Below are positions 42,906 through 43,238 of a stretch of DNA of 64,000 nucleotides, in pieces. The translations under genes and the position numbers were made by a program. The stretch comes from a phage. Position 1 is the first letter of the stretch. Each line of letters begins with the position of its first letter. The stretch lies in the NCBI GenBank assembly GCA_019385495.1, contig GCA_019385495.1_4102.1, one strand, 5' to 3'. Under the pieces are notes generated by a model that was not told the DNA's origin, did not search any database, and saw only the letters and a program-made list of their open reading frames with translations.

Positions 42906-43238
42906 ATGCTAAATCTAAATATTCAAGGCAACGTTGATATCACTCCAGCAATCCAAGATGCTATTTACAATGAAGCAAAAAGTCTGGATAAGTACCGTAC
43001 TTCTTCAGTACTAGACATTGGTGTTCATGTTAAGAAAGAGCATAAAACTCAATATGCTGTAACTTTAACTGCTGGTAGTAAATCAGTAACTGCTGATGAT
43101 GCTGATTTGTATAAAGCAATTGTTGAATCTTTTGATAAGATGGAAACTGTATTCAGTAAAGACAAAAGCATTAAATTACACCGCCGAAACCATCCAGAAC
43201 ACCCAGTTCTTGATGATTTGACAGAAAACGAAGAGTAA
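42906..43238 (+). CDS. ribosome hibernation factor (HPF/RaiA family)
   Basis: MLNLNIQGNVDITPAIQDAIYNEAKSLDKY parallels RaiA [30 protein letters not shown]; length and downstream pattern match. Confidence 0.7.
   Translation: MLNLNIQGNVDITPAIQDAIYNEAKSLDKYRTSSVLDIGVHVKKEHKTQYAVTLTAGSKSVTADDADLYKAIVESFDKMETVFSKDKSIKLHRRNHPEHPVLDDLTENEE

Follow-up and report, generated by a model that had tools for sequence, protein, structure and literature searches.

A gene of a jumbo coliphage, read from the plus strand at positions 42906–43238 of a 64,000-nucleotide (nt) stretch of contig GCA_019385495.1_4102.1 (the window), encodes a 110-amino-acid (aa) protein that is almost certainly a genuine but divergent homolog of the HPF/RaiA family of ribosome hibernation factors. 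Our overall reading is that this vertically inherited family member probably acts on host ribosomes in a RaiA-like manner. The window belongs to Asteriusvirus, the 121Q/PBECO4-like jumbo coliphages with genomes of ~350 kb, and, over 2.5 kb, shares 98.9% identity with the phages G17 and Sharanji. The open reading frame (ORF), initially proposed from the sequence alone, was borne out, its sequence being exactly as first quoted, and the encoded protein starts with MLNLNIQGNVDITPAIQ. Gene and family assignment are correct but already known, as phage records name the protein either S30EA or HPF/RaiA; it is labelled ‘HPF/RaiA family ribosome-associated protein’ in the record of phage UE-S1, carries the same RefSeq name in 121Q (gp533) and PBECO4, and is listed among phage translation factors in the Sharanji genome paper (PMC11895373). 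Phage HPF genes were described as a class by Mizuno et al. 2019, who included the viral HPF of Cronobacter phage GAP32 (AFC21633), an Asteriusvirus relative (PMC6375957) that our tblastn searches did not retrieve. In the other Asteriusvirus literature (phAPEC6 virion proteome, JP4, UE-S1, fEgEco12, G17 and a 2026 jumbo-phage review) we found nothing on the protein beyond the Sharanji listing.

Comparison with Pfam yielded a match to PF02482 (Ribosomal_S30AE) with an E-value of 3.3e-10 and 41 bits against a gathering score of 23.7, extending over profile positions 2–84 of 88, and the precomputed match to this family is present in all members of the phage clade (13/13). The HPF-family profile search that the original prediction had proposed as a check thus returned the family above its gathering score. 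The protein also matches PHROG 8990 (S30EA). Searched against the sequences of solved structures in the PDB, the single protein retrieved Thermus thermophilus HPF at E = 4.9e-7 and a profile of the phage clade matched 23 HPF/RaiA sequences; the significant matches of both searches were hibernation factors only (T. thermophilus, Bacillus subtilis and Escherichia coli HPF, as well as E. coli RaiA), with clade-profile scores of 30.9 bits for HPF vs 24.2 bits for RaiA. Pairwise BLASTP gave 28% identity over 89 aa with E. coli HPF and 25% over 88 aa with E. coli RaiA, the numbering of the two E. coli sequences used being in agreement with the residues given in bioRxiv 10.1101/2025.10.07.680626.

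The AlphaFold2 (AF2) model, with a mean predicted local distance difference test score (pLDDT) of 75, corresponds to the family fold followed by a disordered tail. Strands were predicted for residues 2–8, 36–44, 50–56 and 59–65 and helices for residues 14–30 and 68–86, the core elements reaching pLDDT values of 74–88 and residues 88–110 remaining below 50. In a Foldseek search against the PDB the top 38 matches were all HPF/RaiA/pY/RafH-type factors with a target-normalised TM-score of up to 0.81, and the best E. coli structural match, HPF of the 100S ribosome (6h4n_x), superposes with a root-mean-square deviation of 1.7 Å over 90 columns. Because profile, solved-structure sequence and fold evidence agree, the proposal of a phage-encoded, HPF/RaiA-like protein is supported. 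Long HPFs of Gram-positive bacteria and Thermus share the homologous N-terminal domain, with the B. subtilis and T. thermophilus proteins ranking among the best matches by sequence; their C-terminal dimerisation domain is missing in the phage protein, which ends at residue 110 with the disordered tail, and a Pfam search of the protein found no second domain.

Two other assignments were rejected. Dodecin (PF07311) reached 19.5 bits vs a threshold of 22.5 over residues 12–55 only, and no dodecin appeared in the fold search. Several GenBank records use the label ‘sigma-54 modulation protein’ or ‘putative sigma factor’, a misnomer that the family carries for historical reasons; Pfam detected no sigma-factor domain. 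Among the GenBank records retrieved, HPF homologs are labelled inconsistently or incorrectly: the names ‘putative sigma’, ‘putative sigma 54’ and ‘putative sigma factor’ all occur, and two rV5-like records name the homolog ‘ATP-dependent protease La type I’.

Ribosome-contact residues and proposed action

Cellular HPF and RaiA occupy the tRNA/mRNA channel of the 30S subunit, and basic residues of their helices α1 and α2 contact 16S rRNA. We aligned the phage protein with 54 diverse homologs together with E. coli HPF and RaiA, taking the contact lists from PMC4889938 and bioRxiv 10.1101/2025.10.07.680626. The hallmark residues of the fold are retained (G8, N9, T13, A15, D67, Y69, A71 and I72). 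The basic track of α2, formed in E. coli by K80, K87, K89 and K91, contacts 16S rRNA in every Gram-negative HPF/YfiA structure (bioRxiv 10.1101/2025.10.07.680626) and is preserved in the phage protein by the clade-invariant residues K78, K85, K87 and K90, the equivalence of K90 with K91 requiring a one-residue shift that the HMMER alignment itself introduces. In α1 the sole remaining basic contact is K29, counterpart of R30 in Staphylococcus aureus HPF and likewise invariant in the clade. Net charge proved uninformative as a test of RNA binding, since the phage core carries −2 and the core of E. coli HPF is identical in this respect.

The disordered C-terminal tail of ~23 residues in the AF2 model (KLHRRNHPEHPVLDDLTENEE) aligns its R93/R94 with R95/R96 of E. 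coli RaiA, whose equivalents contact rRNA and uS7 in Klebsiella quasipneumoniae YfiA, and the YfiA/RaiA tail is itself disordered and heads toward the RMF site (bioRxiv 10.1101/2025.10.07.680626). Residues K90, R93, R94, D104, E109 and E110 are invariant or nearly so across the clade. RaiA (YfiA, protein Y; 113 aa), a translation inhibitor that stabilises 70S ribosomes, shares with the phage protein the PF02482 fold, a nearly equal length, the lysine track of α2 and a disordered C-terminal extension with an Arg-Arg pair and an acidic terminus. It differs in several basic contacts of α1 and α2 specified below. The phage gene, moreover, is carried by a jumbo phage that is virulent, and does not occur in the chromosomes or plasmids of E. 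coli.

Several observations weigh against ribosome binding at the canonical site and a RaiA-like action. At the level of the equivalog models, TIGR00741 (HPF/YfiA) was narrowly missed with 36.3 bits vs a cut-off of 40.9, which is consistent with a divergent family member, and the scores for RaiA (NF007654; 19.3 bits vs 158) and short HPF (YhbH, NF007780; 23.2 bits vs 125) were far below their cut-offs. Basic contacts are replaced in α1 (R17→Q, K23→E and K26→S; RaiA itself has R17, R23 and K26) as well as in α2 (R81, corresponding to E. coli R83, →T; K89→I), and the substituted positions carry a basic residue in E. coli HPF, in E. coli RaiA and in 60–80% of cellular homologs. Of the four residues that mutagenesis defined in S. 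aureus HPF, two have no counterpart left (the equivalents of K27 and R87). Among phage HPFs only that of rV5 was tested experimentally; it did not co-purify with 70S or 100S ribosomes under stringent salt washes (PMC6375957) and represents a different lineage with ~43% identity to E. coli HPF. Part of the conservation of the tail, namely the motif ‘DLTE’ and the constant spacing to the stop codon, can be attributed to the promoter described below and not to protein function, and our literature search returned neither expression nor proteomic nor binding data on an Asteriusvirus copy.

Part of this evidence would fit a repurposed homolog that kept the HPF fold, lost or weakened its binding to the decoding channel and took on another role, for instance by binding a different RNA or protein, or by decoying a host factor that recognises HPF/RaiA. 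Three of the four conserved basic positions of α1 and the R83 equivalent are lost throughout the clade, Munch-type relatives additionally lack the K80 equivalent, and the missing ribosome association of rV5 HPF and the score under the TIGR00741 cut-off point in the same direction. We nevertheless regard repurposing as rather unlikely: K29 and four of the five residues of the α2 track do not vary, the tail keeps its RR motif, the net charge does not set the phage core apart from that of E. coli HPF, and in S. aureus HPF binding was abolished only by mutation of all four conserved basic residues (PMC4889938). Because the α2 track is kept, the α1 and R83 contacts are lost and a quadruple mutation was needed in S. 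aureus, binding at the canonical site appears plausible but not assured, with the balance leaning moderately towards it.

In the RaiA-like reading that we favour, the protein would occupy vacant host ribosomes by lodging in the tRNA/mRNA channel that separates the head of the 30S subunit from its body. Ribosomes would be parked as 70S monosomes, in competition with the host's RMF/HPF pathway leading to 100S dimers, and dimerisation would not be promoted. Provided that the protein binds, we lean slightly towards a RaiA-like over an HPF-like action, because the tail combines the RR motif with an acidic end and because no RMF homolog was found in the phage records in a search made without a positive control. 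As the promoter/terminator module overlaps the acidic ‘DLTE..EE’ end, the conservation of this end should not be taken as a sign of protein function alone.

E. coli short HPF (YhbH; 95 aa), the partner of RMF in 100S formation, has the same core net charge as the phage protein, which extends ~20 residues further at its C-terminus. A canonical hibernation promoter of this type, converting 70S to 100S ribosomes together with host RMF and imposing a late translation shutdown on behalf of the phage, would agree with the core being slightly nearer to HPF than to RaiA in both the equivalog and the PDB profile scores, with HPF in the 100S ribosome as best E. coli structural match, and with the probable co-transcription with a lysozyme gene of lysis or tail function, in keeping with expression late in infection. 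We judge it improbable in view of the additional tail, since a RaiA/YfiA tail of this kind heads toward the RMF site, and of the threonine at the R83 equivalent, as the K84/R87 pair is needed for dimerisation of S. aureus HPF (PMC4889938); furthermore, no benefit to the phage is evident.

For RaiA-like occupancy a benefit can be proposed, as idle host ribosomes would stay intact and re-usable. The 16S rRNA would be shielded from RNases, and a dormancy-type shutdown would be countered in starved or defence-activated cells. Such a benefit is plausible because E. coli hibernation factors block RNases from 16S rRNA during starvation (PMC7913689) and RMF is induced in a dormancy-type anti-phage response (PMC11100668). 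A more specialised version of this idea, which we consider unlikely, is an anti-hibernation factor that excludes RMF/HPF, shields 16S rRNA and is readily displaced, perhaps via the phage's own IF3. The remodelled α1 surface, the loss of the dimerisation-critical arginine and the RaiA-like tail would then provide just-tight-enough ribosome occupancy. If this were true, the phage could replicate in starved cells or in cells made dormant by their defences, and the two recombining alleles of the core described below would reflect host-range or arms-race variation.

Relatives, selection and allelic exchange

The identical protein occurs in 11 phage records, among them slurp01, Sharanji and UE-S1 at 100%, and the full-length ORF is kept in >30 isolates as well as in metagenomic contigs. 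A word-seeded protein search retrieved members of the phage clade only (61–100% identity). An exhaustive profile search of 1.8 billion representative proteins gave 63 matches at E <= 1e-3, and since just six of these reach E <= 1e-10, the clade is isolated. A scan of IMG/VR returned 121Q itself only. The nearest outgroups are proteins of ~105 aa sharing the tail pattern; P0016, which belongs to these, shares 73% identity with the protein named ‘ribosome-associated inhibitor’ in Salmonella phage Munch, 7t3 and Klebsiella phage fENko-Kae01. Another database protein (P0015; 1605 aa), consisting of ~29 near-identical copies of a 53-residue unit and matching profile positions 45–81, was rejected as a real relative, being most likely an assembly or read-through artefact.

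RaK2-like orthologs, such as Munch gp216 and CDS0479 of Erwinia phage Hallingskeid, share neighbourhood, length class, tail pattern and the 3′ promoter/terminator module with the Asteriusvirus gene. They differ from it in sequence (31–46% identity), and the Munch type keeps R17 and K26 and lacks the K80 equivalent. The HPFs of rV5-like phages (Vequintavirinae; 105 aa) are likewise PF02482 proteins encoded in large virulent coliphage genomes, but form an independent lineage that is ~43% identical to E. coli HPF, compared with 28% for the Asteriusvirus protein. They account for most of the ~130 phage records that match E. coli HPF, and in tblastn searches at E <= 1e-3 neither the rV5-like nor the Asteriusvirus query retrieved the other clade.

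Gene order is conserved in 121Q, Munch, Hallingskeid and three metagenomic contigs, running from lysozyme through HPF, terminator and small ORFs to the genes for a CCA-adding enzyme, a NUDIX protein, a redoxin and a macro domain protein. The lysozyme gene stands directly 5′ of HPF in every Asteriusvirus-type locus, in Hallingskeid and in the three metagenomic contigs, and Munch has one additional gene and a terminator between the two. Neither 5,426 complete E. coli genomes nor the plasmids of PLSDB contain the gene. Because synteny is conserved across phage genera and the gene is absent from these genomes and plasmids, it is, on comparative grounds, an old and vertically inherited component of the RaK2-like jumbo phages. 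A recent capture of host hpf or raiA was rejected for the same reasons and for the identity of 25–28% to the E. coli proteins.

Nei–Gojobori ratios of non-synonymous to synonymous substitution rates (dN/dS) for nine orthologs were 0.12–0.3 in most pairs and <1 in all pairs, for core and tail alike. As judged from these ratios, the gene is under purifying selection and, because they lie below 1 in all ortholog pairs, the protein is functional. It has to be considered whether the ORF might instead be a decaying host-derived remnant, conserved merely through the overlapping promoter and terminator DNA, as would agree with the nucleotide-level constraint on its last ~25 nt and with fragmented copies in Salmonella phages. 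We regard this as highly improbable. The 261-nt core lies outside the promoter and shows a dN/dS of 0.08–0.38 among Asteriusvirus orthologs, and full-length copies persist in the isolates and metagenomic contigs mentioned above. The fragmented copies come from the Asteriusvirus records of Salmonella phages SD-1, SD-2, SD-6 and SD-15, where the HPF ORF is truncated or broken up (locus L011, 1501–1725, SD-15_S21; locus L012, 1499–1651, SD-1_S14). In these records the adjoining lysozyme gene is fragmented too and the genomes are 20–40 kb shorter, and we did not accept the truncations as a sign of a dispensable gene, as they probably represent assembly errors and not pseudogenisation.

Comparison of the window with 121Q revealed ~80% nt identity for the HPF core (42900–43160) between flanks of 99–100%, with 27 synonymous and 20 non-synonymous differences (dN/dS 0.13) and identical tail and terminator. 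Conversely, phage UB has the window's HPF allele at 100% nt identity, yet only 63–83% at 43900–44600. Because the core diverges between near-identical flanks and UB displays the converse pattern, the alignments mark the HPF core as one among several cassettes that appear to recombine, at least two alleles of it circulating on backbones that are almost the same.

Other variable stretches lie nearby. The overlapping ORFs at 43877–44293 and 44280–44702 are tandem paralogs of PHROG 20693 (function unknown), 41% identical over their C-termini, and coincide with the hypervariable patch of phage UB. At 44838–45464, directly upstream of the CCA-adding enzyme gene, lies a 208-aa ORF that neither 121Q nor G17 possesses and whose match to the HNH homing-endonuclease PHROG 953 is confined to the C-terminal half of the latter; the first ~100 nt of the adjacent CCA gene are 81–92% identical to 121Q and resemble a co-conversion tract. 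The ORF at 41383–41793 has a sub-threshold 2H-phosphoesterase match (PF22547) and contains a divergent patch relative to 121Q (87% at 41500–41600). A second stationary-phase-type gene, with a weakly based annotation, is found ~6.5 kb upstream of the HPF homolog: the ORF at 36008–36448 matches DUF5856 and, below threshold, ferritin/Dps-like proteins, and corresponds to 121Q gp518, ‘starvation-inducible DNA-binding protein’.

Predicted transcription unit and overlapping promoter

The features of the locus are collected in Table 1. The upstream ORF matches phage lysozyme (PF00959, 45 bits) and LysM (PF01476) in Pfam and is the counterpart of annotated 121Q gp532. Between its stop codon and the HPF gene, in the gap that includes the Shine–Dalgarno site GGAAGGTGA, lie 17 nt, and a AGGTAGGT or GGAAGGTG motif occupies the equivalent Shine–Dalgarno position in all orthologs. 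This gap contains no terminator and offers no room for a promoter, and on these grounds HPF is most likely the last cistron of a lysozyme–HPF transcription unit. Promoter-like sites inside the lysozyme ORF are weak. The candidate promoter upstream of the lysozyme gene is likely that of the unit, both of its hexamers being conserved in phages EcMJ, A4 and Turkey5.

Table 1 Features of the lysozyme–HPF locus in window coordinates
Feature	Position	Strand	Description
Candidate promoter of the lysozyme–HPF unit	41818–41845	+	TTGTAA, 16 nt, TG-n-TATACT (extended −10); within the 41794–41961 gap
LysM + phage lysozyme gene	41962–42888	+	Upstream gene; TTG start as annotated in 121Q
Shine–Dalgarno site of the HPF gene	42894–42902	+	GGAAGGTGA; strong; read from sequence
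HPF/RaiA-family gene	42906–43238	+	110 aa + stop; ATG 42906, TAA 43236–43238
Core domain, codons 1–87	42906–43166	+	Predicted strand-helix-strand-strand-strand-helix; also mosaic allele cassette
Disordered C-terminal tail, codons 88–110	43167–43235	+	Basic KLHRRNHP segment, then acidic DDLTENEE
Predicted sigma70-type promoter for downstream genes	43218–43246	+	TTGACA, 17-nt spacer, TATACT; 11/12 consensus positions
Intrinsic terminator of the lysozyme–HPF unit	43247–43277	+	Hairpin 43247–43273, then TTTTCTT

The terminator hairpin has a folding energy of −17.8 kcal/mol (z = −4.2), which none of 200 shuffled sequences attained, and the G17 GenBank record marks the same site as a terminator, as does the annotation of Munch. 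Hairpin and T-run are retained in 11 of 11 orthologous loci despite changes in the stem sequence, the sequence differing with the structure retained in EJP2, Hallingskeid, Munch and two metagenomic contigs. Overlapping the end of the gene we identified a predicted sigma70-type promoter for the downstream genes. Its −35 hexamer coincides with codons Leu105-Thr106, its −10 hexamer follows immediately 3′ of the stop codon, and the hairpin begins one base on, so that the last eight codons of the tail are also constrained by the promoter. Ten of 11 lineages, with protein identities as low as 31%, retain the −35 hexamer, a spacer of exactly 17 nt and a −10 hexamer resembling TATAAT, and the probability of TTG ACA for a Leu-Thr pair is ~0.07 from the codon usage of the window. 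Retention of this codon pair in lineages with saturated synonymous sites indicates a nucleotide-level constraint. By this evidence, the predicted promoter is dual-coding with the C-terminal ‘DLTE’ motif of the protein.

Transcription from this promoter would start ~7 nt past the −10 hexamer, within the 5′ arm of the hairpin. The resulting transcripts would carry an incomplete terminator stem, and transcripts arriving from upstream would be terminated. The original prediction had noted a terminator following the HPF gene and taken it to imply separate regulation of the gene. The hairpin and T-run were confirmed, but the terminator closes the probable lysozyme–HPF unit. It is part of a conserved boundary module of terminator and promoter that has its −35 hexamer within the coding tail of HPF, and separate regulation is not supported.

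Within the window (1–64000), matches to TTGACA-N17-TATAAT with <=2 mismatches number 47, vs 28.4 ± 5.8 in shuffled sequences (0/100 shuffles reach 47). Most of them are located on the plus (coding) strand, and perfect matches are found at 32207 and 61951. This enrichment of sigma70-type motifs is compatible with transcription by the sigma70 RNA polymerase of the host.

The 5′ leader of the lysozyme gene (41877–41965) is conserved across genera and folds with z = −3.7. It contains an invariant box TGTAGAAAGTCC, a hairpin GAGGC...GCCTC at 41892–41912 and a possible helix pairing CTCTTTG with the Shine–Dalgarno region, with five compensatory pairs. As the window holds a single copy of the box, its reading as a general promoter of the phage was rejected. 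A search of the whole window and of the locus against Rfam returned no family match.

Biological meaning

The interest of the gene rests on the question of what phage HPF/RaiA homologs do, and work on ribosome takeover by phage phiKZ reportedly shows the current interest in phage genes acting on ribosomes. The additions made here are modest, comprising a residue-level account of kept and lost ribosome contacts, evidence of a long vertical inheritance under purifying selection, and a corrected view of the transcription unit. If the Asteriusvirus protein binds ribosomes, it would represent a viral tool controlling the dormancy of host ribosomes, which, if true, would bear on the infection of stationary-phase bacteria and on phage therapy with jumbo coliphages.

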